From assembly GCA_016784125.1 (NCBI GenBank), contig JADHVI010000001.1:78417-142416 (forward strand): DNA of 64,000 nucleotides, given 5' to 3'. Source of the stretch: Candidatus Woesearchaeota archaeon. Lineage in GTDB: Archaea > Nanobdellota > Nanobdellia > Woesearchaeales > GCA-2686295. This document shows, one piece after another, positions 18,502-64,000 of this stretch. The notes beneath the pieces are model-generated. The model was not told where the DNA came from. It worked only from the letters and a program-made list of their open reading frames with translations, and searched no databases. A program made the position numbers and the translations under genes. How positions within the stretch are numbered: position 1 is the stretch's first letter; every line of letters starts with the position of its first letter.

Positions 18502-18516
18502 TTTATATTGACTAAA

Positions 18517-18849
18517 ATGAAATTTAAACTAGAAGATGCACATAAGTTTGGCTGGAAAGGGCTTGATGGATGGGCTTATAATTCTAAAGATGATTTTGCA
18601 AGTGCAAGTGCAGCTTATTTTGAAGTAGATGGTTCTCATGGTAAATGCAAAACCCATAGCTCAGATAGAGTTTATTTGGTGTTAGAAGGTGAAGGAGAGT
18701 TTATTATTAACGACAAAGTCATAGAAGTAGAACAATCAGATGTGATAATAGTTCCTAAGAATACTCCTTATGATTATAGTGGTAAGATGAAACTATTTTT
18801 AGTTCACACACCTGCATACATGCCTGAAGATGATGTTAAGTTAGAATAA
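18517..18849 (+). CDS. Cupin-domain protein
   Basis: About 110 aa. RVYLVLEGEGEFIINDKVIEVEQSDVIIVPKNTPY is a classic cupin beta-barrel segment. I prefer the ATG at 18517 over the TTG at 18508. Confidence 0.7.
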   Translation: MKFKLEDAHKFGWKGLDGWAYNSKDDFASASAAYFEVDGSHGKCKTHSSDRVYLVLEGEGEFIINDKVIEVEQSDVIIVPKNTPYDYSGKMKLFLVHTPAYMPEDDVKLE

Positions 18850-36319: not shown

Positions 36320-36943
36320 ATGACAAATAAGTTAGGTTTAGTACATGTTTATACAGGTAATGGAAAAGGAAAGACAACGCATGCAATGGGTATAGCTATG
36401 CGCGCAGTTGGTCAAGGTTTCAAAGTTTACGTTGTTCAATTTATGAAAGGTGGTGCTTACACGGGTGAATTCATAGCTGCTAAAAACTTTCTTCCAGCAG
36501 TAGATTTTGAGCAACATGGAAAACCTTGTGTGAAAGAGCAAAAGCAAATGAAGTTACGAGGTCTGGATGATAATAAACCACCATATTTTGATTATGTGAG
36601 AGATGATATTGATTGTGGTTCTTGCAGACATTGCTTTCTTAATGACACCGAACAAAGAGGATTTGTTAGATCGGCTTTTGATAAGGCTAAGGAAATTACT
36701 TCTTCAAAAGAATATGATTTGGTTGTGTTGGACGAAATAAATGTGGCGTTGGAATTTGACTTTATCAAAGTAGATGAGTTGAAACGTTTGATTAAAAACA
36801 AGAGTAAACATACAGAGTTAATTTTAACAGGCAGGGGTGCTTCAAAGGAGATAATGGCTCTATCAGACTATGTTAGTGAGATAAAGTCTATTAAACATCC
36901 TTTTGATGATGGTGTTTCTGCCAGGAGAGGAATTGAGTACTAA
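36320..36943 (+). CDS. cobA: CobA/BtuR-type cob(I)yrinic acid a,c-diamide (corrinoid) adenosyltransferase with Cys-containing insertion
   Basis: VHVYTGNGKGKTTHAMGIAMRAVGQGFKVYVVQFMKG, LVVLDEIN, LTGRGA, IKHPFDDGVSARRGIEY. I trimmed the track ORF (36272) to the ATG at 36320, 1 nt after the nrdJ stop. The insertion carries C-x28-C-x2-C-x2-C. Confidence 0.85.
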   Translation: MTNKLGLVHVYTGNGKGKTTHAMGIAMRAVGQGFKVYVVQFMKGGAYTGEFIAAKNFLPAVDFEQHGKPCVKEQKQMKLRGLDDNKPPYFDYVRDDIDCGSCRHCFLNDTEQRGFVRSAFDKAKEITSSKEYDLVVLDEINVALEFDFIKVDELKRLIKNKSKHTELILTGRGASKEIMALSDYVSEIKSIKHPFDDGVSARRGIEY

Positions 36944-37641
36944 TGAAACAAGCAGTTGTTTTAGCGGCGGGACAAGGAGTGCGAATGCTTCCTCTAACAA
37001 AAGAAATTCCAAAACCTTTGATTGAAATTAATGGCAAACCTTTTTTAGAATACCTTTTAAGAAATCTTGAGAAGGCTGGTTATGAAAAGGTTTTTTTAGT
37101 TGTTGGATATAAGAAGGAGAAAATCGAGGCGTTTTTTGAACATACAAGTTTTAACTTTGAAGTTGAACTTGTCGAACAAGAAGAAAGGTTTGGAACTGGT
37201 CATGCAGTAAGTCTGTTAAAAGATAAAATTAAGGGCAATTTTGTCTTATTAATGGGTGATAATTTGTACTCTGAGATTGATTTTGCAGAAGTCCCTCTTG
37301 AAGATGATAATAATTATGTTTATGGATATGTGCATGTTAATCCAAAAGGTTTTGGAATTCTAGTTCACGAAGAAGATCTTCTAATTGAAATTCAAGAGAA
37401 ACCAGAAATTTCACCATCAAATATAATTAATGTTGCACTGTATAAGTTTACTAATGAAATATTTGATGTTTTAACAAATATAGAGAAATCTTCCAGAGGA
37501 GAATTTGAATTGACTTGTGGAGTTAATCTGCTTGCTAAACAAAAGAAGGTAAAAATGAGTTTGTTAAAAGATTATTGGCTAAATCTTGGTGTTCCGGCCG
37601 ATATTCCCATTCTCATGCAATTTGTAAAAAATAATTTCTAA
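36943..37641 (+). CDS. Sugar-1-phosphate nucleotidyltransferase (GlmU N-terminal/RmlA-like fold)
   Basis: AVVLAAGQGVRMLPLTKEIPKPLIEINGKPFLEY and FGTGHAV. TAATG overlap with the cobA stop. Confidence 0.7.
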   Translation: MKQAVVLAAGQGVRMLPLTKEIPKPLIEINGKPFLEYLLRNLEKAGYEKVFLVVGYKKEKIEAFFEHTSFNFEVELVEQEERFGTGHAVSLLKDKIKGNFVLLMGDNLYSEIDFAEVPLEDDNNYVYGYVHVNPKGFGILVHEEDLLIEIQEKPEISPSNIINVALYKFTNEIFDVLTNIEKSSRGEFELTCGVNLLAKQKKVKMSLLKDYWLNLGVPADIPILMQFVKNNF

Positions 37642-40055: not shown

Positions 40056-41165
40056 TTATATTTTTTTCTCAGGAAATAACGATAAAACTCCTTCTTCACT
40101 TGCGTCACATATTCCTCTCTCTGTTATTAGTCCAGTAACAAGTCTTCTTGGTGTTACATCAAAAGCGAAATTAGCGGCGTTAGCGTTTTTAGGTGTTAAG
40201 AGAACCTCTTTTATTTCTCCTTCAAGCCATCCTCTGGCAAACTTAACTTCTTCATTTCCTCTTTGTTCAATTGGGATTTCTTTTACCCCATTTCTCATAT
40301 TCCAATCAAATGTGGAAGAAGGAAGTGCCACATAGAAGGGGATGTTATTATCTTTGGCGGCTAATGCCTTAAGGTAAGTTCCTACTTTGTTGGCTACATC
40401 ACCTGTATATGTAGTTCTGTCGGTTCCTACGATGCACATATCAACCATTGAATGCTGCATTAAATGTCCGCCAACATTATCAGCGATTACTGTGAAAGGA
40501 ACTTTGTGTTGTTCTAGTTCCCACGCAGTCAGTCTTGCACCCTGGTTTCTTGGTCTGGTTTCATCAACCCAGACGTGTACTTTAATTCCTTTATTGAAAG
40601 CTTCATAAATTGGGGCTGTAGCTGTTCCATAATCAACGAATGCCAACCATCCTGCATTGCAATGAGTTAGAATATTAACAGGTTTGCCATTCTTTTGTTT
40701 GCTAATATCTTCAATGATTTTAGAACCGTGCTCGCCAATACTCTTACAAAATTCTGCGTCTTCATCTGCAATTTCTTTTGCAGTTTTCAAAGCAGCTTCA
40801 ACTTTTTCTTTTGTAGAACCATATTTATTCATTTCTTTTATCTGTCTCTTAACAGCCCACGAAAGATTTGTGGCAGTTGGTCTTGTAGCAATTAGTTTAT
40901 CGGCTAACATTTGAAGTGTTTTATCAAAAGAATCTGATTTGTAGGCTTCCAACGCCGCAATGTACATTCCATATCCTGCAGCTGCGCCAATAAGTCCTGC
41001 GCCACGCACATGCATATCCTTTATTGCGACAATCATATCTTCTACAGTTTTCAAATCCTCAATTATGAATTCATGAGGAAGATTTCTTTGGTCAATGATT
41101 TGGACTGTTTCTTTATCACTCTCTTTTAACCAAATTGTTCTATGGTGTTTACCGTCGACTTTCAT
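40056..41165 (-). CDS. mtnA: Methylthioribose-1-phosphate isomerase (eIF-2B alpha/beta/delta family)
   Basis: VQIIDQRNLPHEF, MHVRGAGLIGAAAGYGM, THCNAG, VDETRPRNQGARLTAWEL, VGTDR. Confidence 0.8.
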   Translation of the reverse strand: MKVDGKHHRTIWLKESDKETVQIIDQRNLPHEFIIEDLKTVEDMIVAIKDMHVRGAGLIGAAAGYGMYIAALEAYKSDSFDKTLQMLADKLIATRPTATNLSWAVKRQIKEMNKYGSTKEKVEAALKTAKEIADEDAEFCKSIGEHGSKIIEDISKQKNGKPVNILTHCNAGWLAFVDYGTATAPIYEAFNKGIKVHVWVDETRPRNQGARLTAWELEQHKVPFTVIADNVGGHLMQHSMVDMCIVGTDRTTYTGDVANKVGTYLKALAAKDNNIPFYVALPSSTFDWNMRNGVKEIPIEQRGNEEVKFARGWLEGEIKEVLLTPKNANAANFAFDVTPRRLVTGLITERGICDASEEGVLSLFPEKKI

Positions 41166-41206
41166 CTTATAAATAAGAAAAGATTGAACATATAAAAATA
41201 TTTAGA

Positions 41207-42187
41207 TTATTTTTGTTGTATTATATCTTTTATATTTTCTTTCAAAGAAATGCTTAATCTTCCACCATATTCTGTTACAACTCTCGAAGCTGTATAATTG
41301 GCTATCTTGGCGGCTTCTTCAACTTTGTAACCATTTGTTATGCCAAACAAGAATCCTGCAGCAAACATATCGCCTGCACCCGTTGTATCAACAGTTTCAA
41401 CTTTGAATCCTTTAACTTTATGAATTATGCCTTTATTGCTTATCAGTGCACCTTCCTTGCCAAGTTTTACAATAGCTATCTCGCACATTTTTGAAATTTC
41501 TTTCAATGCTTCTTCCTTCTCTTTTCCTGTAAGTATTTTGGCTTCATCTTCATTAGCGATTATGATATCTGCAAATTCTTCTAAGATTTTCAAAATGTCT
41601 TCTTTGCATCTCTTAACAAGAGAAGGATCAGAAACATCAATTGCAATTTTCTTTTCATGTTTCTTCGCTTCTTTTAAGGCTTTCAAAGCCATCTGTCTAA
41701 GGTTTGGTTCTTCAAGAATATATCCAGTAACATAAATGATCTTGCTGTTCTTTATGTCTTCAATAATGACTTCATCTTCATTCAAAGTAATTGCTGCTCC
41801 TAAATGAGTAATCATTGTCCTTTCAAAGTCTGGTGTAACAAGAGCAGTGCAAGAACCAGTAGTGACATTACCTTTAATCAAAGTTGGTTTGATGCCGTCC
41901 TGTGTCAAAGTTTCTTCAATGAACAAACCATTTTTATCATTGCCAACTTTTCCACAAAAAACAGCTTTACCGCCAAGGTTAGCAATGCCCATCATAGTAT
42001 TTACAACATCGCCTGCAGGTTTAATACCAGTTTCTTCATTTTTCAATTTGTTAAGTAGGTCTGTGGCGGTTTTTTCATCCACGAAGTTAACAGAACCTTT
42101 TGTTAAGTTTAATTCGCCAACTTTTTCTTCAGCAACTTTTATGACTGTATCCACCATAGGGTTTCCGAGTCCAAAAACATCATACAT
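41207..42187 (-). CDS. PfkB-family nucleoside/sugar kinase (adenosine-kinase-like)
   Basis: FGLGNPMVDTV at the N-terminus and the DTTGAGDMFAAGFLFG signature. Confidence 0.75.
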   Translation of the reverse strand: MYDVFGLGNPMVDTVIKVAEEKVGELNLTKGSVNFVDEKTATDLLNKLKNEETGIKPAGDVVNTMMGIANLGGKAVFCGKVGNDKNGLFIEETLTQDGIKPTLIKGNVTTGSCTALVTPDFERTMITHLGAAITLNEDEVIIEDIKNSKIIYVTGYILEEPNLRQMALKALKEAKKHEKKIAIDVSDPSLVKRCKEDILKILEEFADIIIANEDEAKILTGKEKEEALKEISKMCEIAIVKLGKEGALISNKGIIHKVKGFKVETVDTTGAGDMFAAGFLFGITNGYKVEEAAKIANYTASRVVTEYGGRLSISLKENIKDIIQQK

Positions 42188-51734: not shown

Positions 51735-51863
51735 CTTAACTTACCAGGACTAATGTGACATATAAATAGTTAACTAATGTTTTTTGTGAACTTTTTTGTG
51801 TCGACGATGAATCCTCTATTTACAAGTAAAACTTTTTAAATAAAGTTTTATTCTCGTCACCAC

Positions 51864-53054
51864 ATGATGACCAATTTAAAAGAATATCTATTAAAAACCC
51901 TGGAACTACAGAAAGGAATTGTATTTGCTAGTAAACCAACCTTTGTTTGTAGGGGAAATTATTCTGGTCGTGATATAATTGCTAAGAATAGTGAATTTTC
52001 AGAAGATTTTGTTGATGAGAGGGGTTATGTTCCTGTCGAATTATGGTTAATGTCTCTTGTTGAAGCTGAGAATCCTGAGAAAAAAGAAGGAGAAGGATTA
52101 ACCAGCATAAGTTTAATTGAAGGAGAGGTCACTCTTAAGCAAATATCAGATGTTGCAGAAGAAGAACTTTTTGGAGTTTGGAAAACATCTTGGCCTCTAA
52201 CAAAAATTCTTGATATTGGCGGAGTTCCTAAGAAAACCAGTTTTTCAGATCAAAAAGAAGTTCCTGCAATACCACCACATATCCATGGGGGGAACATCGT
52301 TGATGGTGTGGCCATAAAACCTGGCAAAATCGAAGCATATTTCTTTCCACCTTTAAACGTTGGTCCTTATAATCGAGAGATTGGTAGAACCATTTCAAGA
52401 TTGGGATTTAAGTCAGGTGTTACAAAAGAGATATTTAAAGAAACATTAAGACATTTTGGGAAAGATGATTCTATGTATGAGTTATTAGAGCCACATATTG
52501 TCAAACCTTATTCTGGTTGGACAATGCCTGCAGGCACTATTCATTCTCCAGGACCTTGGGTTACATTTGAGGTTCAACTTCCTCAAGATGATTTTAACAA
52601 TGTTGGTTGGAAATTTGAAGATAGAATTCCTGAAGCAAACTGGGAAGAGGAATACAACAAGTTGGTTCTTAGAGGATTAAAGGATGAAGATGATCTAATT
52701 AACCAAGTACTAGATTGGGATGTGTCAACAGATCCAAATTTTAAAGATCATTATCAAAGAGAAATAAAAATTATTGAGGAAGGAGATTTTGGTCGTAGAT
52801 TCCAGATATTTTTTGATCAATTTTATGGTGAGGGTTGGGAAATAAATAGTGGTAAATCACTTACAATTAATGCAAAAGAAAAACCAATTGCGGGACTTGT
52901 TTGGTCTGGAAATGGCTCACTAAATGATAATCAAGTAAGTGTGGACAAAAACAGAGAGTTTTTTATAGTTCCACAAACATCCATAACTTTAGAAAATAAT
53001 GGCTCAGAAAAACTAATTATGTTCACAGTTGAACCAATTGGAGGTTTGAAATGA
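51864..53054 (+). CDS. Cupin-fold sugar-phosphate isomerase-like protein (class I phosphomannose-isomerase-like)
   Basis: IPPHIHGG...KPGKIEAYFF and MPAGTIHSPGPWVTFEVQLPQDD resemble the metal-binding and xPAGTxHAxG...E.Q..SD segments of type I PMI. It is the first gene of a 4-gene overlapping operon. Confidence 0.4.
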   Translation: MMTNLKEYLLKTLELQKGIVFASKPTFVCRGNYSGRDIIAKNSEFSEDFVDERGYVPVELWLMSLVEAENPEKKEGEGLTSISLIEGEVTLKQISDVAEEELFGVWKTSWPLTKILDIGGVPKKTSFSDQKEVPAIPPHIHGGNIVDGVAIKPGKIEAYFFPPLNVGPYNREIGRTISRLGFKSGVTKEIFKETLRHFGKDDSMYELLEPHIVKPYSGWTMPAGTIHSPGPWVTFEVQLPQDDFNNVGWKFEDRIPEANWEEEYNKLVLRGLKDEDDLINQVLDWDVSTDPNFKDHYQREIKIIEEGDFGRRFQIFFDQFYGEGWEINSGKSLTINAKEKPIAGLVWSGNGSLNDNQVSVDKNREFFIVPQTSITLENNGSEKLIMFTVEPIGGLK

Positions 53055-54550
53055 CCAAACTAAATGTTGACAAGACAAAAAAGATTTTGAACGACTTTGA
53101 AAACAAAACTATTTTGGTAGTCGGCGATTTTTATTTGGATGAATATATTGAAACAACAAGCGATCAATTTAGTCCAGAAGCGCCCGTACCAAGAGCAATT
53201 GTCAAATCAAAAATTCACGTTCCAGGGGCCGCAGGCAATGTTGCTTGTGTATTAAAAGAACTGGGAGCAACTGTAAAAACCGTTGGAGTTATTGGGGCAG
53301 ATAACAACGGTGATATTCTGAAATCTGATTTGGATTCTAGGGGTATTGATACTCAAGGACTAATTTTAGATAAAGAAAGACTAACTGGTACTTTCTCTCG
53401 GATACTATTATTGTTTGGTGGTAATATTAGTCAACATGTCATAAGATTTGATCATGAAAATGATTCTCCTTTATCACAAAGTACAAGAAAACAAGTTATA
53501 TCAAATTTTAGAGAGCAAGTTAAGTCTTGTGATGCTATTTTTATGGCTGATTATGATGAAACAGGTGGAACTGGATTAATCAATGATGAATTAATGGAAG
53601 AAATTATTGATTTAGCTAAATCTAATAATGTCTTAACTGTAGGAATATCTAGGCTTAACATAAAAAAATTCAAAGATTTTGATTTGATAATCACGAATGA
53701 GAAAGAAACCGAAATTGCAACAAACATAAAAATCACAGATGATGAAACTTTGTTGAAAGCAGTTGAAAATCTTAAAACCAATCTTAAAAGCAAAGTAGTT
53801 CTGGCTTCTTTGGGAAAGAAAGGTGCAATCGTTATGGATGAATCTTTAACTTTTCAACTTCCAAGTTTTGCTAAAAAAGTGGTTGATGTTTGTGGTGCTG
53901 GTGATACTATGAGTTCAGCTTTTGCTCTTTCAAAACTATCTAATGCAACTCACAGTGAGGCTTTAGAAATTGGTAGTTTTGCAGCAAGTGTGGCTGTACA
54001 AAAAGAAGGAACTGCAACTGTTTCAAGAAGTGAATTGCTAAGTGCAATTAAAAATGAATATGAATCCATCAACAAGCTTGTGACTCCTGTACAATTAAGC
54101 TCATTAGTTAAAGGTTTTAAGAAGCAAGGGAAAAAAGTTGTTCTCACAAATGGTTACTTTGATTTTATTCATGCAGGAATAATTCAATTTTTACAAGAAG
54201 CAAAGAAACAAGGAGATATATTGATAGTTGCTTTGAATAGTGATGAATCAACAAGATCAAATAAAGGCACCGATAGACCTCTATTAAACCAGGGTGATCG
54301 AGCCAAGATTATGTCTGCTTTCAGCTTTGTTGACTATGTGGTTATTTTTGAAGAACTGACGCCTATAAAGCTCATACAAACCCTCCATCCCGATGTTCTT
54401 GTGAAAGGAGGAACTCATTCAAAAGAAGAGATTGTTGGCAAAGACTTATTTGAGGATATGAGTTCTAAAGCTCTTCCTTTGATGGGGCCTTCAACCGAAA
54501 GCATGATTGATTTTATTAAAAATAGTAAGAAATCATTACATGAAAAATGA
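53051..54550 (+). CDS. hldE: Bifunctional HldE/RfaE-like protein: heptose-7-phosphate kinase (PfkB) fused to a cytidylyltransferase-like domain with degenerate HxGH
   Basis: ATGA overlap with the upstream gene. Domain I: LVVGDFYLDEYIE...SPEAPVP...PGAAGNVA and DVCGAGDT. Domain II: VVLTNGYFDFIHAGIIQFLQEAKKQGDILIVALNSD...PDVLVKGG. The HxGH position reads HAGI (54170..54181). Confidence 0.8.
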   Translation: MTKLNVDKTKKILNDFENKTILVVGDFYLDEYIETTSDQFSPEAPVPRAIVKSKIHVPGAAGNVACVLKELGATVKTVGVIGADNNGDILKSDLDSRGIDTQGLILDKERLTGTFSRILLLFGGNISQHVIRFDHENDSPLSQSTRKQVISNFREQVKSCDAIFMADYDETGGTGLINDELMEEIIDLAKSNNVLTVGISRLNIKKFKDFDLIITNEKETEIATNIKITDDETLLKAVENLKTNLKSKVVLASLGKKGAIVMDESLTFQLPSFAKKVVDVCGAGDTMSSAFALSKLSNATHSEALEIGSFAASVAVQKEGTATVSRSELLSAIKNEYESINKLVTPVQLSSLVKGFKKQGKKVVLTNGYFDFIHAGIIQFLQEAKKQGDILIVALNSDESTRSNKGTDRPLLNQGDRAKIMSAFSFVDYVVIFEELTPIKLIQTLHPDVLVKGGTHSKEEIVGKDLFEDMSSKALPLMGPSTESMIDFIKNSKKSLHEK

Positions 54551-55458
54551 AGACTAAAGATAGACCTTTGGAAAGTCATACATCTGTTATAAGTAGTTTT
54601 ATGGATTTTGCAAATGTTCCTGAAAAAGAAAGAGAACTTCTAAAAAGAGAGTTGAAGAGATACATTGAAACACGAATTGTTAAAGGGAAATGGTGTCATC
54701 CTTTTATTACTAAGTTTCACACTGATTGGTACAGAGAATTTTATAGAATAATTGATGGCACAGATCCTTACAAGTTGATTAAGGATAATTCTAATATTCA
54801 AGCGAAACAGCTTCTTAAAAACTTTAAATCAGATAGCATAAGAGATTCTGTGATGCTCACTATTATAGGTAACAAAATAGATTTTGGAGCTTGTATGGAT
54901 AGCATATACAATTTAGAGCAACTTAAAGCAGACATTCAAAATGTTAAAAGGGAAAATTTTTCAGTTAATCAAGTTGAAGAGATGTTAAGCGAGATTAAAT
55001 CTGCGAAAAATGTTCTTTATCTCTTTGATAATAATGGAGAAATGATATTCGATACTTTGCTACTTGATTTCATCGTAAAACATGTTGATAAGAAAAATGT
55101 TTTTCTTGTGGGAAAAGATAAACCTATGTTGAATGATGTGACAGTTGCAGATTTAAAATCTGAAAAATTAGACGAATTTGGTCTCATTGTTTCAACAGGT
55201 AGTGACTGTTTTGGTTTGCATGAAGAAGATGTATCTGATGATTTCAAGAAGCTCTTGAAATCTGCTGATTTAATTATTGCTAAAGGTCAAGCTTACTTGG
55301 AATTCTTTTCAGAGTATAATTTCACAAATGTTTTTCATGTATTGCGTGTTAAACAAGAAATTGTTGGTGATGAATTGCCTACTTTGACACCAGGCATGAA
55401 TGTAGTTATGAAATCAACAAATTATGCTGGGAAAGGTGTTGATTATGTTTGGAGTTGA
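54547..55458 (+). CDS. DUF89/ARMT1-like metal-dependent sugar-phosphate phosphatase
   Basis: ATGA overlap. LYLFDNNGEMIFDTLLLDF (the D-N-x-G-E signature) and IAKGQAYLEF (KGxxNYE-like). Confidence 0.65.
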   Translation: MKTKDRPLESHTSVISSFMDFANVPEKERELLKRELKRYIETRIVKGKWCHPFITKFHTDWYREFYRIIDGTDPYKLIKDNSNIQAKQLLKNFKSDSIRDSVMLTIIGNKIDFGACMDSIYNLEQLKADIQNVKRENFSVNQVEEMLSEIKSAKNVLYLFDNNGEMIFDTLLLDFIVKHVDKKNVFLVGKDKPMLNDVTVADLKSEKLDEFGLIVSTGSDCFGLHEEDVSDDFKKLLKSADLIIAKGQAYLEFFSEYNFTNVFHVLRVKQEIVGDELPTLTPGMNVVMKSTNYAGKGVDYVWS

Positions 55459-55463
55459 TAATT

Positions 55464-55952
55464 ATGGGTGTTGAAAAAATAAAAACGAGAGAAGAAATTA
55501 AGGAACTATGTGTTAAACTTAAAGCAGTTGGTTTAACAATTGTTACAACTAATGGTAGTTATGATATTTTACATGCAGGGCATGTTAGAATGCTTGAAGA
55601 AGCTAAGAAACAAGGGGATATTCTCATAGTTGGTTTGAACAGTGATAAATCGGTTCAAGCATACAAAAACAAAGATAGGCCAATTATACCTGAGCAATAC
55701 AGAGCAGAACTTTTAGCTGCATTGGAATGTGTAGATTATGTGACTCTTTTTGATGAAACCGTTCCCATGGAATTTATCAAATCGGTTGTTCCAGATATTC
55801 ACGTCAATTATGCTGGATATGGAGGGGATTGTGTTGAGAAACCTCTTCTTGATGAAATAGGCGCAAAGCTTCATTTAGTTGGAGATTTGTGTGACTTTTC
55901 AACAACAAAAATTGTAGATAAGATAATAAAGATTTATTCTAAACAAAACTAG
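55464..55952 (+). CDS. Stand-alone cytidylyltransferase-family nucleotidyltransferase (RfaE domain II-like, intact HxGH)
   Basis: GGAG Shine-Dalgarno, ATG at 55464. TNGSYDILHAGHVRMLEEAKKQGDILIVGLNSDKS...RP. HAGH lies at 55572..55583. It shares an identical EAKKQGDILIV stretch with the fused domain of the upstream gene. Confidence 0.8.
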   Translation: MGVEKIKTREEIKELCVKLKAVGLTIVTTNGSYDILHAGHVRMLEEAKKQGDILIVGLNSDKSVQAYKNKDRPIIPEQYRAELLAALECVDYVTLFDETVPMEFIKSVVPDIHVNYAGYGGDCVEKPLLDEIGAKLHLVGDLCDFSTTKIVDKIIKIYSKQN

Positions 55953-55956
55953 TTGA

Positions 55957-57057
55957 TTAAGAAAGTTTATTAATTGTTTTTTTCACTTCTTTTACACTGA
56001 TTAGTTTCATACATTTCTGGAATTCTTTATTGATGCAAATTGGCATGATACCTTTTTCATTGATAATACACGGGCTACATGAAATCTTGTGATAAATTGA
56101 CACGTTTCCTTTGCCGAAAGGACCCCATCTCACAGGAGTATTTGGTCCGAATAATCCAATTGTCTTACATCCCTGTGCTGCAGCCACATGCATTGGTCCT
56201 GTATCATTGCTAATGAAAATATTGCACTTTTCAATCAAATCAAATGATTCTGTCAAACTAATTTTCCCTGCAGAGTTTATAGACTTTGTATTCATTAGAC
56301 TTCGAACTTCTTCGATAAGTTTACTCTCTGCTGGCGAACCTGTAAATATGACCACATAATTTTTATTTGTTAAGTAGTCTGCCAATTCTGCAAATCTTTC
56401 CTTTGGCCACATTCTTTCTCTGACGGATTCTGCAGCACCAGTGCATATGCCTGCAAGTTTATCGTTCTTTTTCACACCATTTTTTCTTAAGAATATATCT
56501 ACTTGTTCTTTCTCTTTTTTATTAACTTTTAGCTTTTCTAGTTTACTAATTGTTTTTTCAATTCCTACTTGTCTTCCCAAATCCATATACATTTCAACCA
56601 TGTGTTTGCTCTTTGAAAATAGGCTGGTTTTATTATACAGAATTGATCTTGCTTGGTTTGAAAATCCAATCCTAAATTTACCTATCCACCAAGACAGTAG
56701 TGCTGATGAATTAAGATAAGGTTCTAGATCAAACACTAAGTCAAATTTTCTAAGAAATTTAAACAAATTTTCTTCTTCAAATAAAATTATTTCATCAATA
56801 AAGCTCTGATGTTCATATACTGTGAAATTTCGTTTATGAGCAATAACTGTTATATTAGATTTTGGATATTTTTCCTTTATGGCTTTAATCAAAGGAAGTG
56901 ATGTTACGGAGTCTCCTATAGCCCAAAGTTTCACAAATGCAATGCTTTTAACATCAAATTTATCTTTGGAAAACAGTTTGGATAACCCACCAATTATCCA
57001 GCTTACGGGGCCTATAATATATTTGTCCGTTGTTCTAAGAACTTTGATCGAGCTCAT
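55957..57057 (-). CDS. GT9-family glycosyltransferase (heptosyltransferase-like) 1
   Basis: LWAIGDSVTSLPLIKAIKEKYP, NDTGPMHVAAAQGCKTIGLFGPNTPVRWGP. Confidence 0.8.
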   Translation of the reverse strand: MSSIKVLRTTDKYIIGPVSWIIGGLSKLFSKDKFDVKSIAFVKLWAIGDSVTSLPLIKAIKEKYPKSNITVIAHKRNFTVYEHQSFIDEIILFEEENLFKFLRKFDLVFDLEPYLNSSALLSWWIGKFRIGFSNQARSILYNKTSLFSKSKHMVEMYMDLGRQVGIEKTISKLEKLKVNKKEKEQVDIFLRKNGVKKNDKLAGICTGAAESVRERMWPKERFAELADYLTNKNYVVIFTGSPAESKLIEEVRSLMNTKSINSAGKISLTESFDLIEKCNIFISNDTGPMHVAAAQGCKTIGLFGPNTPVRWGPFGKGNVSIYHKISCSPCIINEKGIMPICINKEFQKCMKLISVKEVKKTINKLS

Positions 57058-57495: not shown

Positions 57496-60348
57496 ATGAT
57501 GACAAAGAAGAAAAAAGATGATGATCTTTCTATAAACTTTTCAGGCATAGGTTCAAAACTTAAAAAGTTTGAATTTCCTAAGAATCAAGCTTGGATTATA
57601 ATACTCTTAATAGCCATAGCCATTTTCTTTTCAATTTATTACAGATCTTACTCTTACTATCTTCCAGTAACTGATGACTGGGCTTATAACAACATCTATA
57701 ATAATGTTCGAAGTCAAGTTGCTAGCAATATCAATCTTCAATATCCTAATCTTCCTACTGATAGCAAGAACCAAATGATCAATGAGGAAGTTAGCAAATT
57801 TTTACAGCAACAAGGTCCATCTTTGCAAGCACAAATTGAAGGTCTTTCAAAAGATATGAAGACAAGATTCCAAAATGATGAGGGTCAAACATATTTATTG
57901 GCTATTGATCCCTATTTCTATTATAGATACTCCAGAAATATTATTGAGAAAGGTCATTATGGTGATTCAGTAGATGAAAATGGTCATTTTGATTCACATG
58001 TATTGGGGCCTGGTGGAAAATATGTTCCAGATACTTTTCATTCATATTTTGGAGCTTTCTTTCATCGCTTTGTAAACATATTTGCTAATAATAGTTTGAT
58101 GACAAACTTCTTTTTTATACCGGTATTCTTATCTGCACTCGCAGTTATTCCTGCATTCTTCATCGCAAGAAAGAAAGTTGGTTTATTTGGAGGATTCATT
58201 GCAGGTATGATTGTTGCAATCCATCCTGCTTTCATTGGAAGAACTGCTGGAGGATTCGCTGATACAGATCCCTACAATGTATTATTCCCGCTTTTTATAG
58301 CTTGGCTGTTTATAGAGGCGTTTGAATCAGATAGTTGGAAAAAACAATTGGGTTTATTGGCTGGTGCGGGTTTCTTAACAGGGCTTTACAGTTTTGCTTG
58401 GAGTGGCTGGTGGTACATATTTGACTTTCTATTATTAGCCATAATTATATTCTTAGTTTATTTAGTTGTAAAATCATTAGTTCAATACAAAGGGTTTAAG
58501 AAAATCTGGAATAAAGATTTCAAAAACGCTTTGACAATGTTAGTGTTGTTCATAGTATTATCAGGTATATTTGTCTCTTTGTTTTCAGGTGCCTCACAGT
58601 TTCAGAACTTCATTGATGGTCCTTTAAAATTTAAAGTTATAAAACAAGCAGCCAAGCCAGATCTTTGGCCAAATGTTTACACTACTGTTGCAGAACTTAA
58701 CGCTGCATCCATTAATTCCATCATAAAACAGATTGGTGGTAAATTGTTCTTCTTTATTGCCTGTATTGGAGTCATACTTACACTTTTCAAGAAGAAGAAT
58801 GTTTCGAAATTGGACTTTGTAACTTTAGGTATAGCCGTTATAGTATTCGCTTTGCTAGTTTCAAAGGAAGCCATAAAATTATCTCCTGTAAAGTACTTAG
58901 CAATATTTGCGATCCCAGTTATTGTAGGACTTATTATTTTGCTTAAAGACAAAAGAAATACTGACGTAAAATATGCCTTGTTCCTAACTATTTGGTTTGC
59001 GGGAACCATCTATGCTAGTACTCAAGGAACAAGGTTCGTTTTACTAATGGTGCCTGCCTATGCCATTGCATTAGGAATTGCTTTTGGCACAGTTCAATCG
59101 TGGCTTACAAACTGGACTGCTAAAGAATTCAAATTTAACAGGAAAATTATGGGTGCTGTGCTCATTGTTCTGTTGCTTTTATTACTAATTGGGCCAATGA
59201 AATCAGCTCATAATACTGCTAAAAGCGAGATTCCAAGTATGACTGACGGTTGGTGGAACACACTAACAAATATACAAAAGAACTCTGCTGAGAATGCTAT
59301 TATAACATCTTGGTGGGATTTTGGCCATTGGTTCAAAGCAGTTGCAGATAGAGCTGTAACTTTTGATGGTGGTAGTCAGAACAGACCTCAAGCTCATTGG
59401 GTTGGAAAACTATTGATGTCAAATAATGAAGATGAGTCTATAGCTATCTTACGTATGCTTGACTGTGGTGCGAACAATGCCTTTGATGAAGTAAACCTAA
59501 AATATGATGACACTGAAACATCAGTCGATGTTATTTATGAAATTATAATGAAAAATGATGTTGAAGCTAAAGCATATTTATTAGAAAAAGGTTTTACAGA
59601 AGAGGAATCTGTAACAGTTATTAAGTATACTCATTGTTCTCCTCCAGAAGCATTCTTAATTACTTCAGAAGATATGGTTGGAAAGGCGGGTGTTTGGTCT
59701 CACTTTGGAAGTTGGAATTTTGACAGATCATTCATATATAATAATGTTCGAAAGCAAGAATATCAAGAGTCTATAGATATTCTAACAACCAGATTTGGTT
59801 TTACAGAAGAAAAAGCGGCTGATTATTTTTATGAAGTTCAAGCTATTACATCTAATCAGGAAGCGAATAATTGGATTGCTCCTTGGCCTAATTATGGCAC
59901 TCCAAGTATAAGAGGTTGCAAGAACGAATCTGATATTGTAACTTGTAATATGAATATTGGAATTGGCGAAAGCAATCAAGGTCAATCAGTGAGTATAGCT
60001 GCTGGTGTGTTTAACCTTTCAGATCCTTCAAATTCCAGATTTGTATTGGCTTTCATAGACAGAAATTCTGGTTTAGTTGCTGCAACTCAAGAAGCAAAAC
60101 CTGCTAATGTAGTTATATTTGATGAAGAAGGAGAGCACACATATATTTTGGGCGGAGATATATTCTTAGATCTCGTCTATGAGAAAGAAATGAATAAAGC
60201 TTTAATTACACATCCCTCTCTATCAAAATCATTGTTTACAAAGTTGTTCTTCTTTGAAGGCAGACACACATCACATTTTGAGAAATTCAGTGATATGAAC
60301 TCAATGACTGGTGGAAGAATTCTCGTGTGGAAAGTTCTTTGGGATTAA
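57496..60348 (+). CDS. aglB: Archaeal oligosaccharyltransferase AglB (STT3 homolog)
   Basis: 950 aa with about 13 N-terminal TM helices and the WWDYG-type motif TSWWDFGHWF, followed by a large C-terminal soluble domain. Confidence 0.9.
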   Translation: MMTKKKKDDDLSINFSGIGSKLKKFEFPKNQAWIIILLIAIAIFFSIYYRSYSYYLPVTDDWAYNNIYNNVRSQVASNINLQYPNLPTDSKNQMINEEVSKFLQQQGPSLQAQIEGLSKDMKTRFQNDEGQTYLLAIDPYFYYRYSRNIIEKGHYGDSVDENGHFDSHVLGPGGKYVPDTFHSYFGAFFHRFVNIFANNSLMTNFFFIPVFLSALAVIPAFFIARKKVGLFGGFIAGMIVAIHPAFIGRTAGGFADTDPYNVLFPLFIAWLFIEAFESDSWKKQLGLLAGAGFLTGLYSFAWSGWWYIFDFLLLAIIIFLVYLVVKSLVQYKGFKKIWNKDFKNALTMLVLFIVLSGIFVSLFSGASQFQNFIDGPLKFKVIKQAAKPDLWPNVYTTVAELNAASINSIIKQIGGKLFFFIACIGVILTLFKKKNVSKLDFVTLGIAVIVFALLVSKEAIKLSPVKYLAIFAIPVIVGLIILLKDKRNTDVKYALFLTIWFAGTIYASTQGTRFVLLMVPAYAIALGIAFGTVQSWLTNWTAKEFKFNRKIMGAVLIVLLLLLLIGPMKSAHNTAKSEIPSMTDGWWNTLTNIQKNSAENAIITSWWDFGHWFKAVADRAVTFDGGSQNRPQAHWVGKLLMSNNEDESIAILRMLDCGANNAFDEVNLKYDDTETSVDVIYEIIMKNDVEAKAYLLEKGFTEEESVTVIKYTHCSPPEAFLITSEDMVGKAGVWSHFGSWNFDRSFIYNNVRKQEYQESIDILTTRFGFTEEKAADYFYEVQAITSNQEANNWIAPWPNYGTPSIRGCKNESDIVTCNMNIGIGESNQGQSVSIAAGVFNLSDPSNSRFVLAFIDRNSGLVAATQEAKPANVVIFDEEGEHTYILGGDIFLDLVYEKEMNKALITHPSLSKSLFTKLFFFEGRHTSHFEKFSDMNSMTGGRILVWKVLWD

Positions 60349-63086: not shown

Positions 63087-63122
63087 GAAATCTTTAAATA
63101 AGATGTTGTTCTAACTATTAAC

Positions 63123-64000
63123 ATGAAAGCATTAGTTATATCTGTAGCGGGAATTGGCAATACTTTAATGGCCACTCCTTTAATACATGAGCTGAGGAAG
63201 CAAGGTAAAGAAGTCCACGTTCTAGTCGGCAATAAGCCGGGTGCAGAAGCTCTGAAAAACAACGATGACGTTAAAAAAGTCATTATCATGAGCAAGAGCA
63301 AATTCAAAGCTCTCCTGCCTAATCTTCGTCTGTTACGATCTTTAAAGAAAGCCAATTACGATGAAAGCTACATGGTTTTTCCAGGAAATAGATGGTTCTT
63401 CAATCTGATTTCTTTCTTAGCAGGTGCAAAGAAAAGATATGCTCATCGTTATCCAAACAAAAATTTTCGTTCTCTTTCGTTCTTGAACAGTAAGTTAGTT
63501 GAAATGCAAAAAACTCATGATGTTATTCAAAATCTAAATTTGCTGGAAAAAGGTTACAAGAATTCCAAACCCAGAATGGTTCTAAACGCAGGATCTGTTA
63601 AAAAGAAGGCAATAATTGGTATTCATCCGGGTAGCAGCACTGCTTCTGATATGGAGATGAAGCGCTGGCCTGAAAAATATTATGCAGAACTCATAAACAA
63701 GCTCAAATATCCTGTCAGAGTATTTATCGGACCTGACGAAGAAGATTCATTTAAGCTCCTCAAGAAATACTTGACAAGAGAGGTTGAAGAGATAAGGGAA
63801 AAGTCCATATTCAAAGTTGCAAAAAAAATAAAAGAATGCAAGCAGTTCATTGCAAATGATTCTGGTCTGATGCACATTGCAACTGCAGTTGAAGTTCCTG
63901 TTATAGGCATATTTGGTCCTACTGATCCTATGAGAAATGATCCTTTTACAGACAATAAAATTGTCTTGACACATAAAATGTCATGTCAACCCTGCAGTCA
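63123..64000 (+). CDS. GT9-family glycosyltransferase (heptosyltransferase-like) 2; C-terminus outside the window
   Basis: Absent from the ORF track because it runs off the window. The ATG at 63123 reads MKALVISVAGIGNTLMATPLIHELRKQGKEVHVLV...IGIHPGSS...KRWPEKYYAELI...ANDSGLMHIATAVEVPVIGIFGPTDPMRNDPF. Confidence 0.8.
   Translation, partial: MKALVISVAGIGNTLMATPLIHELRKQGKEVHVLVGNKPGAEALKNNDDVKKVIIMSKSKFKALLPNLRLLRSLKKANYDESYMVFPGNRWFFNLISFLAGAKKRYAHRYPNKNFRSLSFLNSKLVEMQKTHDVIQNLNLLEKGYKNSKPRMVLNAGSVKKKAIIGIHPGSSTASDMEMKRWPEKYYAELINKLKYPVRVFIGPDEEDSFKLLKKYLTREVEEIREKSIFKVAKKIKECKQFIANDSGLMHIATAVEVPVIGIFGPTDPMRNDPFTDNKIVLTHKMSCQPCS

Follow-up and report, generated by a model that had tools for sequence, protein, structure and literature searches.

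A woesearchaeal operon and its relatives point to a GmhA/GmhB-independent route to nucleotide-activated heptose

Here we report the analysis of a four-gene operon at positions 51864-55952 of a 64,000-nucleotide stretch of DNA from a Candidatus Woesearchaeota archaeon (contig JADHVI010000001.1; the whole stretch is referred to below as the window). The operon probably encodes a route from sedoheptulose-7-phosphate to nucleotide-activated D-glycero-D-manno-heptose that is independent of GmhA and GmhB, the canonical isomerase and phosphatase of heptose activation. Its genes, named here g1 to g4, encode a bicupin with the fold of phosphomannose isomerase (PMI) that belongs to an unnamed family, an HldE-like protein with a PfkB kinase and a nucleotidyltransferase (NT) domain, a DUF89/ARMT1 phosphatase of subfamily I, and a stand-alone NT of the HldC/RfaE-domain-II type. 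A sequence-only reading of the same DNA had proposed an alternative enzyme set that replaces GmhA and GmhB in archaea. The replacement is supported by the predicted fold of g1, by a conserved gene module, by natural gene fusions and by a set of control loci, but the restriction to archaea did not hold, as the module is present in bacteria too.

All four open reading frames (ORFs) of the operon are on the + strand. The genes g1 (51864-53054, 396 amino acids) and g2 (53051-54550, 499 amino acids) overlap by an ATGA at 53051 (sequence AAATGACC), g2 and g3 (54547-55458, 303 amino acids) overlap by an ATGA at 54547 (sequence AAATGAAG), and g4 (55464-55952, 162 amino acids from its ATG) follows g3 after a gap of 5 nucleotides in the junction TGA-TAATT-ATG (55456-55466), so that the overlapping and abutting layout described previously can be read directly from the DNA. 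The frame of g4 is also open from an alternative upstream start, TTG at 55449. In a relative from a public sequencing run (locus L121), we found all four genes again, arranged with the same junctions, flanks and larger cluster, the proteins being 87-96% identical, and the dN/dS ratio between the window and L121 is 0.08-0.12 for every operon gene and domain. Given the conserved layout and these ratios, the operon genes are real, evolve under purifying selection and form an operon-like unit. The g1 gene is more diverged from its counterpart (L121 7680-8870; 87% amino acid identity, dS 0.61, dN/dS 0.12) than every flanking gene (92-96% amino acid identity) and has a higher dS than g2-g4 (0.19-0.32); allelic replacement or recombination is a possible explanation. 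A candidate archaeal TATA box, TTTAAATA, putative in function, is located on the + strand at 51835-51842, approximately 22-29 nucleotides 5' of the g1 ATG, within the 129-nucleotide divergent intergenic region between g1 and a GT4 glycosyltransferase gene. A scan of the window for sigma-70 promoters and intrinsic terminators gave no enrichment, the sigma-70 consensus being inapplicable to archaea. The window itself is AT-rich (GC content of about 33%), and domain searches of its ORFs revealed archaeal content, including RFC, Hjc, the tRNA-intron endonuclease, FEN1, PAN, aRF1 and AglB/STT3.

The g1 protein has no match in Pfam or NCBIfam, and four members of its family are without a Pfam match even at E<=10. 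Its AlphaFold2 model, obtained from a 47-sequence alignment (pLDDT 96.2, pTM 0.93), has a bicupin fold. The top 17 Foldseek matches of this model in the PDB are all type-I PMIs (E from 6e-15 to 1e-10), including 1zx5, 1qwr, the Salmonella PMI series and 1pmi, and generic bicupins rank lower. The target-normalised TM-scores to PMI structures are at most 0.75, with 10-17% identity in the structural alignments, and the sole sequence-level link to a PMI is that to 1zx5 (E = 3.5e-4). A comparison of the g1 alignment with the single sequence of E. coli ManA by hhalign gave nothing useful, and a homologue search seeded with ManA for a PMI profile returned near-identical enterobacterial proteins only.

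We mapped the active-site residues of ManA onto g1 by the order and spacing of motifs together with the fold match, not by coordinate superposition, using the residues that had been probed in mutant structures of the Salmonella PMI. According to this mapping, K86 of ManA corresponds to K114 of g1, Q97/H99 to H139/H141, K132/E134 to K155/E157, H255 to H227, and E264 to E236, with the +9 spacing from the histidine retained; H139/H141, K155/E157, H227 and E236 are invariant or near-invariant across the g1 family. The g1 protein would thus share with type-I PMIs (ManA/PMI; 1pmi, 3h1y, 1qwr, 1zx5) the bicupin fold, the zinc ligands Q/H-x-H, E and H, the catalytic Lys and Glu of the K-x-E motif, the Glu nine residues past the C-terminal His, and an expected manno product. 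The two differ in that the first metal ligand is His in g1 and Gln in PMI, in that g1 matches none of the PMI sequence models PF20511, PF01238 and PF20512, and in that g1 has a non-basic residue in the position of ManA Arg274, through which PMI binds the phosphate of its substrate. The gene contexts also differ, being heptose activation for g1 and GDP-mannose synthesis for PMI. The counterpart of Arg274, position 246 of g1, is Leu, Asn, Phe or Met across the family; three other arginines of g1, R30, R53 and R179, are invariant. We consider g1 to be PMI-like in its predicted fold and probable chemistry and do not assign it to the PMI family; its chemistry is very probably an aldose-ketose conversion like that of PMI, with the substrate held in a different way. 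As a cupin, g1 lacks the SIS fold and homology that define GmhA and would be an analogue of that enzyme.

The homology search for g1 returned 139 relatives with 38-87% identity, which carry no Pfam domain outside of their fusion partners. They come from Aenigmarchaeota, Woesearchaeota, Patescibacteria, Verrucomicrobiota, Planctomycetota, Bacteroidota and eukaryotes; viral relatives of g1 were looked for and not found. The family is rare, with 346 matches at E<=1e-3 and 49 matches at E<=1e-30 when 1.84 billion cluster representatives were searched exhaustively.

The g2 protein consists of a PfkB domain (PF00294) and a CTP_transf_like domain (PF01467), and its alignment to the HldE equivalog model NF008454 runs from end to end (residues 10-491 on model positions 2-473 of 475), with a score of 313 bits against a trusted cutoff of 521. 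Its scores with the domain models TIGR02198 (238 bits, cutoff 345) and TIGR02199 (146 bits, cutoff 181.5) are also under the cutoffs. The protein shares 32% identity with E. coli HldE along the full length, and approximately 37%, across about 95% of its length, with the annotated HldE proteins of Helicobacter and Aliarcobacter. Judging from these comparisons, g2 belongs to a divergent HldE clade outside the curated equivalog; no eukaryotic members of this clade are present among the best 120 matches. In the NT domain of g2 (window 54083-54547), the HxGH motif is replaced by HAGI, the STT of the (F/L)xxGxSTT motif is replaced by STE (PSTE), and two residues are deleted. Since the HldE-fused NT of related operons usually retains HxGH, this change is specific to the lineage of the window, and we rejected the idea that HldE NT domains have degenerated in the module at large. 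Decay of the domain was rejected as well, because the 95%-identical protein of L121 retains both HAGI and STE, and because the dN/dS of the domain is 0.08 (0.09 for the kinase part of g2). The domain appears to be constrained and is probably not a standard NT, being either non-catalytic or altered.

As the NT domain of g2 is missing the second His of HxGH, the working heptose-1-phosphate NT in this operon is probably g4, the role of which had gone unremarked in the sequence-only reading. This protein scores 148 bits with TIGR02199 (cutoff 181.5) and matches PF01467 at 1e-18, and its motifs, HAGH and FSTT, are canonical. In other genomes, NTs of this type are fused to g1 or to both DUF89 and g1. 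An STTR5 rule has been reported for promiscuous heptose NTs (PMC11573728); the absence of the corresponding Arg in g4 (...DFSTT) weakly suggests an ADP-heptose product.

The g3 protein matches PF01937 (ARMT1/DUF89) at 6e-44 with 151 bits, and its nearest solved structures are 2g8l (PH1575; E 2e-32) and 2ffj (E 2e-25), which places it in subfamily I. The DUF89 catalytic set includes a nucleophile Asp-Asn pair, a metal-binding Asp, a phosphate-binding Lys and two general-base Asp residues (PMC9062747). When aligned with 2g8l and 2ffj, g3 keeps D161-N162, the Asp of LND, the Lys of KGQ, and the acidic residues of GNxxD and GSD, and thereby shares its catalytic residues with other subfamily-I proteins (PH1575, AF1104). 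Sugar phosphates are among the known substrates of DUF89 enzymes, the yeast protein YMR027W acting on fructose-1-phosphate and fructose-6-phosphate. As a DUF89 protein, g3 lacks the HAD-IIIA fold and homology of GmhB and would be an analogue of it. The previous assignments of gene 2 to HldE/RfaE, with a kinase and an NT-like domain, and of gene 3 to the DUF89/ARMT1-type phosphatases are confirmed by these domain matches; that of gene 1 as a PMI-like cupin agrees with the predicted structure, but such a protein is not recognisable by sequence models.

Neither GmhA nor GmhB was found in the window, as had been noted from the sequence: phmmer searches with the E. coli proteins against six-frame segments gave best E-values of 0.74 and 0.17, and no SIS or HAD Pfam domain was detected in the 49 window ORFs scanned. 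We then analyzed the genomic context of g1 in 34 non-redundant loci, selected on g1, by scoring their six-frame ORFs within 5 kb with phmmer seeds. An HldE-type kinase is present in 21/34 loci, an HldC-type NT in 23/34, DUF89 in 21/34 and a GT9 glycosyltransferase in 12/34, and neither GmhA nor GmhB was detected in any of the 34. The combination of g1, an HldE-type kinase/NT and DUF89 is a conserved module, found in 18-21 of the 34 loci, and occurs in DPANN archaea and in several bacterial phyla. For comparison, 80 HldE loci, mostly bacterial, were sampled from metagenomes without reference to g1. None of these control loci has g1 or DUF89 nearby, whereas GmhA and GmhB are found in 11 and 13 of them, respectively, the E. 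coli seeds detecting diverse homologues with E-values from 1e-17 to 1e-55. GmhA or GmhB accompanies 0/21 loci with g1 and HldE versus 19/80 control loci (Fisher p = 0.011), and DUF89 adjoins or is fused with HldE or g1 in 18/21 of the former versus 0/80 of the latter (Fisher p = 4e-17). Three further HldE relatives, picked by their HldE similarity alone (46%, 39% and 36%), have DUF89 directly downstream in all three cases and g1 in two.

The phosphatase position of the module is occupied differently in the Candidate Phyla Radiation (CPR), where, in three contexts, a HAD-IIB (Hydrolase_3) phosphatase stands in the DUF89 slot and a transaldolase is co-encoded. The phosphatase slot is therefore interchangeable, and the source of sedoheptulose-7-phosphate is co-encoded. 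In two of the CPR loci (L004 and L023), the order is g1, NT, transaldolase, PfkB kinase, HAD and GT9, a cluster in which every step is covered only if g1 serves as the isomerase.

Gene fusions link the components of the module physically. In 11 loci, and probably in one more, g1 is part of a fusion protein, in five independent architectures: NT+g1 (L002, L012), g1+NT (L016), DUF89+g1 (L122, Bacteroidota), DUF89+NT+g1 (L010, L013, L017, L022, and probably the P0400 locus, known from gene calls only) and Kin+NT+g1 (L014, L015, L036). Tridomain heptose enzymes comprising isomerase, kinase and NT are known (PMC11573728), and the Kin+NT+g1 proteins have a parallel architecture with the cupin in the GmhA position. 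Another precedent is the type-II PMI/GDP-mannose pyrophosphorylase of the AlgA/XanB type, which likewise fuses an isomerase cupin to the NT of its own pathway, but differs by its PF00483 NT (HIGH-motif PF01467 in the g1 fusions), its single-domain cupin and its sugar. Four of the loci (L010, L012, L017 and L022) are labelled 'uncultured Methanosarcinales archaeon'; their operons are nearest to the Woesearchaeota/Aenigmarchaeota versions, with g1 47-56% identical to that of the window, and these labels may be unreliable.

In the proposed pathway, the metal-dependent bicupin g1 would convert sedoheptulose-7-phosphate to D-glycero-D-manno-heptose-7-phosphate, which is the chemistry of PMI on fructose-6-phosphate with one carbon more. 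Such a role, with a manno-configured product, suits a protein that has the predicted fold and the catalytic residues of the type-I PMIs. The PfkB kinase domain of g2 would phosphorylate C1 to yield heptose-1,7-bisphosphate, from which g3, a phosphatase of the aspartyl-phosphate type, would remove the 7-phosphate to give heptose-1-phosphate. The g4 protein, with HxGH and STT intact, would then transfer a nucleoside monophosphate to form nucleoside diphosphate (NDP)-heptose, while the degenerate NT domain of g2 would be retained for some other constrained role. Finally, a GT9 enzyme would add the heptose to a lipid-linked glycan, a Wzx-like flippase would flip it, and AglB would transfer it. Our analysis shows the gene structure, the predicted folds, the conserved catalytic residues, the gene linkage, the fusions and the distribution complementary to GmhA/GmhB; the substrates, products, nucleotide, acceptor and glycan fate in this scheme are inferred.

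Outside of the heptose module, g1 is found in several other contexts. In three independent loci from Bacillota, Limnochordales and Clostridia metagenome-assembled genomes (MAGs), it adjoins a FGGY-family sugar kinase (L020 4364-7219, L021 88-5198, L027 633-3441), and its neighbours there include a DeoC/LacD aldolase, a DUF4432 protein, or a glycyl-radical enzyme with its activase. In a further locus (L028 5813-10940), g1 adjoins a sugar ABC transporter. The Bacillota-type loci look like a catabolic isomerase-kinase-aldolase pathway. In Patescibacteria H51-bin030 (L007 10001-17668), g1 is accompanied by HAD-IIB, a transaldolase, a NeuB-like synthase, a CTP_transf_3 CMP-sugar synthetase, a short-chain dehydrogenase/reductase (SDR) and methyltransferases, with no kinase and no HldC-type NT; the product of g1 possibly feeds an ulosonic-acid pathway there. 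Eukaryotic members of the family (P0063, P0085, P0060, P0071, P0100, P0106) come from the sponges Sycon ciliatum and Oopsacas minuta and from protist transcriptomes, and are 42-46% identical to the archaeal protein. The g1 genes in L005 and L006 (10001-11203) are intron-free and lie on eukaryotic contigs, next to genes for a WD40 protein, tubulin, ESCRT-II and Exo84; neither HldE nor DUF89 is encoded in their vicinity. These contexts outside the module support g1 as a general sugar (aldose-ketose) isomerase.

Several observations weigh against the proposed pathway. The presence of g1 without any heptose gene in eukaryotes, Bacillota and L007 means that the family is not exclusive to NDP-heptose. 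Because position 246 of g1 is occupied by Leu, Asn, Phe or Met, its phosphate binding, if any, must differ from that of PMI, and the choice between a manno and a gluco aldose product cannot be read from the sequence. Both g2 and g4 score below the HldE/RfaE trusted cutoffs, by which their substrate identity is not guaranteed. The linkage of HldE and DUF89 reaches slightly past that of g1, as an HldE-DUF89 pair with 36% identity to g2 (L125 5955-8362) has no g1 within 8 kb; there is no GmhA within 8 kb of it either. Lastly, the absence of GmhA and GmhB was established over 64 kb of the genome, and canonical genes may lie elsewhere.

The last point leads to the strongest of the alternatives, which we nevertheless consider unlikely, namely that canonical GmhA and GmhB encoded elsewhere in the genome run the pathway, and that g1 and DUF89 are accessory companions of hldE. 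DUF89 could then clear off-pathway or excess heptose phosphates, and g1 could diversify the sugar as an epimerase or isomerase. Our analysis covers one contig of a MAG, and 61 of the 80 control HldE loci have neither GmhA nor GmhB, the genes being often unlinked to hldE in bacteria. Moreover, DUF89 enzymes have so far been read as broad damage-control phosphatases (PMC9062747). Set against this is the complementary distribution of GmhA/GmhB and g1 among HldE loci (0/21 versus 19/80), together with the five architectures, Kin+NT+g1 among them, that fuse g1 to kinase, NT and DUF89, and with the CPR clusters, in which the module and transaldolase lack an isomerase other than g1. Unlike the damage-control enzymes, proteins of the g3 type form part of a biosynthetic pathway, to whose other enzymes they are often fused, which implies a dedicated committed step and not housekeeping damage control. 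The small genomes of DPANN and CPR organisms also make redundancy unlikely.

A hexose module is somewhat less probable again. Here g1 would be a divergent mannose-6-phosphate isomerase, and the pathway would proceed via mannose-1,6-bisphosphate and 6-dephosphorylation by DUF89 to NDP-mannose, independently of phosphomannomutase. The nearest folds of g1 are indeed all mannose-6-phosphate isomerases, g2 and g4 fall under the HldE equivalog cutoffs, and the L007 locus with g1, HAD, NeuB-like synthase and CMP-sugar synthetase resembles a KDN-type pathway starting from mannose-6-phosphate. However, genes of the GT9 heptosyltransferase family accompany g1 in 12 of the 34 loci, and a transaldolase, the distinctive product of which is sedoheptulose-7-phosphate, is encoded in all three CPR contexts including L007. 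The similarity of g2 to the HldE proteins of Helicobacter and Aliarcobacter (about 37% identity), the lack of a match of g1 to any PMI sequence model and the missing counterpart of Arg274 also speak against a hexose substrate. The least probable alternative is that g1 acts on free sugars (sedoheptulose/heptose or mannose/fructose), the phosphorylated isomerisation being done otherwise or unneeded: the FGGY kinase, aldolase and ABC transporter next to g1 in Bacillota/Limnochordales form a classic isomerise-then-phosphorylate layout and Arg274 has no counterpart, but the HldE-linked modules always include a phosphatase (DUF89 or HAD-IIB), which points to a bisphosphate and hence to a 7-phosphorylated substrate, and the invariant R30, R53 and R179 are available for phosphate.

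Convergent with the operon is a GT9 heptosyltransferase gene (55957-57057, - strand), which matches PF01075 at 2e-43 with 149 bits and scores 127.5 bits with TIGR02195 (cutoff 134.6); its product is the likely consumer of NDP-heptose. A gene for a DUF2304 membrane protein separates it from the gene for the AglB/STT3 oligosaccharyltransferase (57496-60348, + strand; PF02516 at 1e-43). The whole 44-64 kb region, which also encodes a UDP-sugar dehydrogenase, three SDR epimerase/dehydratases, methyltransferases, a Wzx-like flippase, GT4, GT2 and DUF2304, is a protein-glycosylation or glycan-assembly cluster marked by AglB, and it is syntenic in L121. A second GT9-like ORF (63102-63998, + strand) reaches the window end and is similar to the first GT9 at E 1e-19; the module likewise has two GT9 genes beside it in L002, L012, L016, L026 and the P0400 locus. 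Elsewhere in the window, at 40056-42187 (- strand), an IF-2B-family protein adjoins a second PfkB-family sugar kinase. By position, these two genes have no connection to the heptose operon, and they may serve in nucleoside/AMP salvage; the IF-2B family includes ribose-1,5-bisphosphate and 5-methylthioribose-1-phosphate isomerases. A single-domain Cupin_2 protein of 113 amino acids (18508-18849, + strand) and a PF00483 sugar-1-phosphate nucleotidyltransferase (36943-37641, + strand) are likewise not linked to the operon.

Compared with the canonical GmhA/HldE/GmhB route, the proposed pathway has a homologous kinase and NT (g2 and g4), the same four-step logic, a GT9 consumer and multidomain fusions (kinase/NT and isomerase/kinase/NT). 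It differs by the PMI-fold bicupin in place of the SIS-fold GmhA, by DUF89 (HAD-IIB in CPR) in place of the HAD-IIIA GmhB, and by the second NT that is usually present in the g1 module. There is precedent for the pathway logic and for the kinase, NT and GT9; the non-homologous isomerase and phosphatase pair and the g1 family itself are new. In the full-text literature, in which subscription journals are largely uncovered, we found no paper tying DUF89 or a cupin/PMI-like protein to heptose synthesis. The cross-kingdom census of heptose biosynthesis enzymes relied on homologues of the four canonical enzymes (PMC11461863, PMC11573728) and would for that reason not have counted the g1 module; in the same census, the phosphatase is given as missing in eukaryotes and viruses (PMC11461863).

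Taken together, we lean towards a complete GmhA/GmhB-free route to NDP-heptose that is widespread in DPANN archaea, CPR bacteria and several other bacterial phyla, with a new family of PMI-fold sedoheptulose-7-phosphate isomerases and the first dedicated biosynthetic role for DUF89. NDP-heptoses are building blocks of lipopolysaccharides, capsules, S-layer and protein glycans, and are potent innate-immune agonists sensed by ALPK1; GmhA and GmhB are under study as antibacterial targets. If the proposed route is correct, homology-based censuses undercount the producers of heptose, and hence of potential ALPK1 agonists, notably among DPANN and CPR organisms, the surface chemistry of which is almost unknown, and the 'missing phosphatase' of eukaryotic heptose pathways may be of the DUF89 type. 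An orphan conserved family of about 350 representative clusters, with animals and protists included, would gain a testable function, for which the natural fusion proteins are ready constructs for in vitro reconstitution. Likewise, DUF89, with its physiological substrates still debated, would gain a genetically anchored substrate hypothesis.

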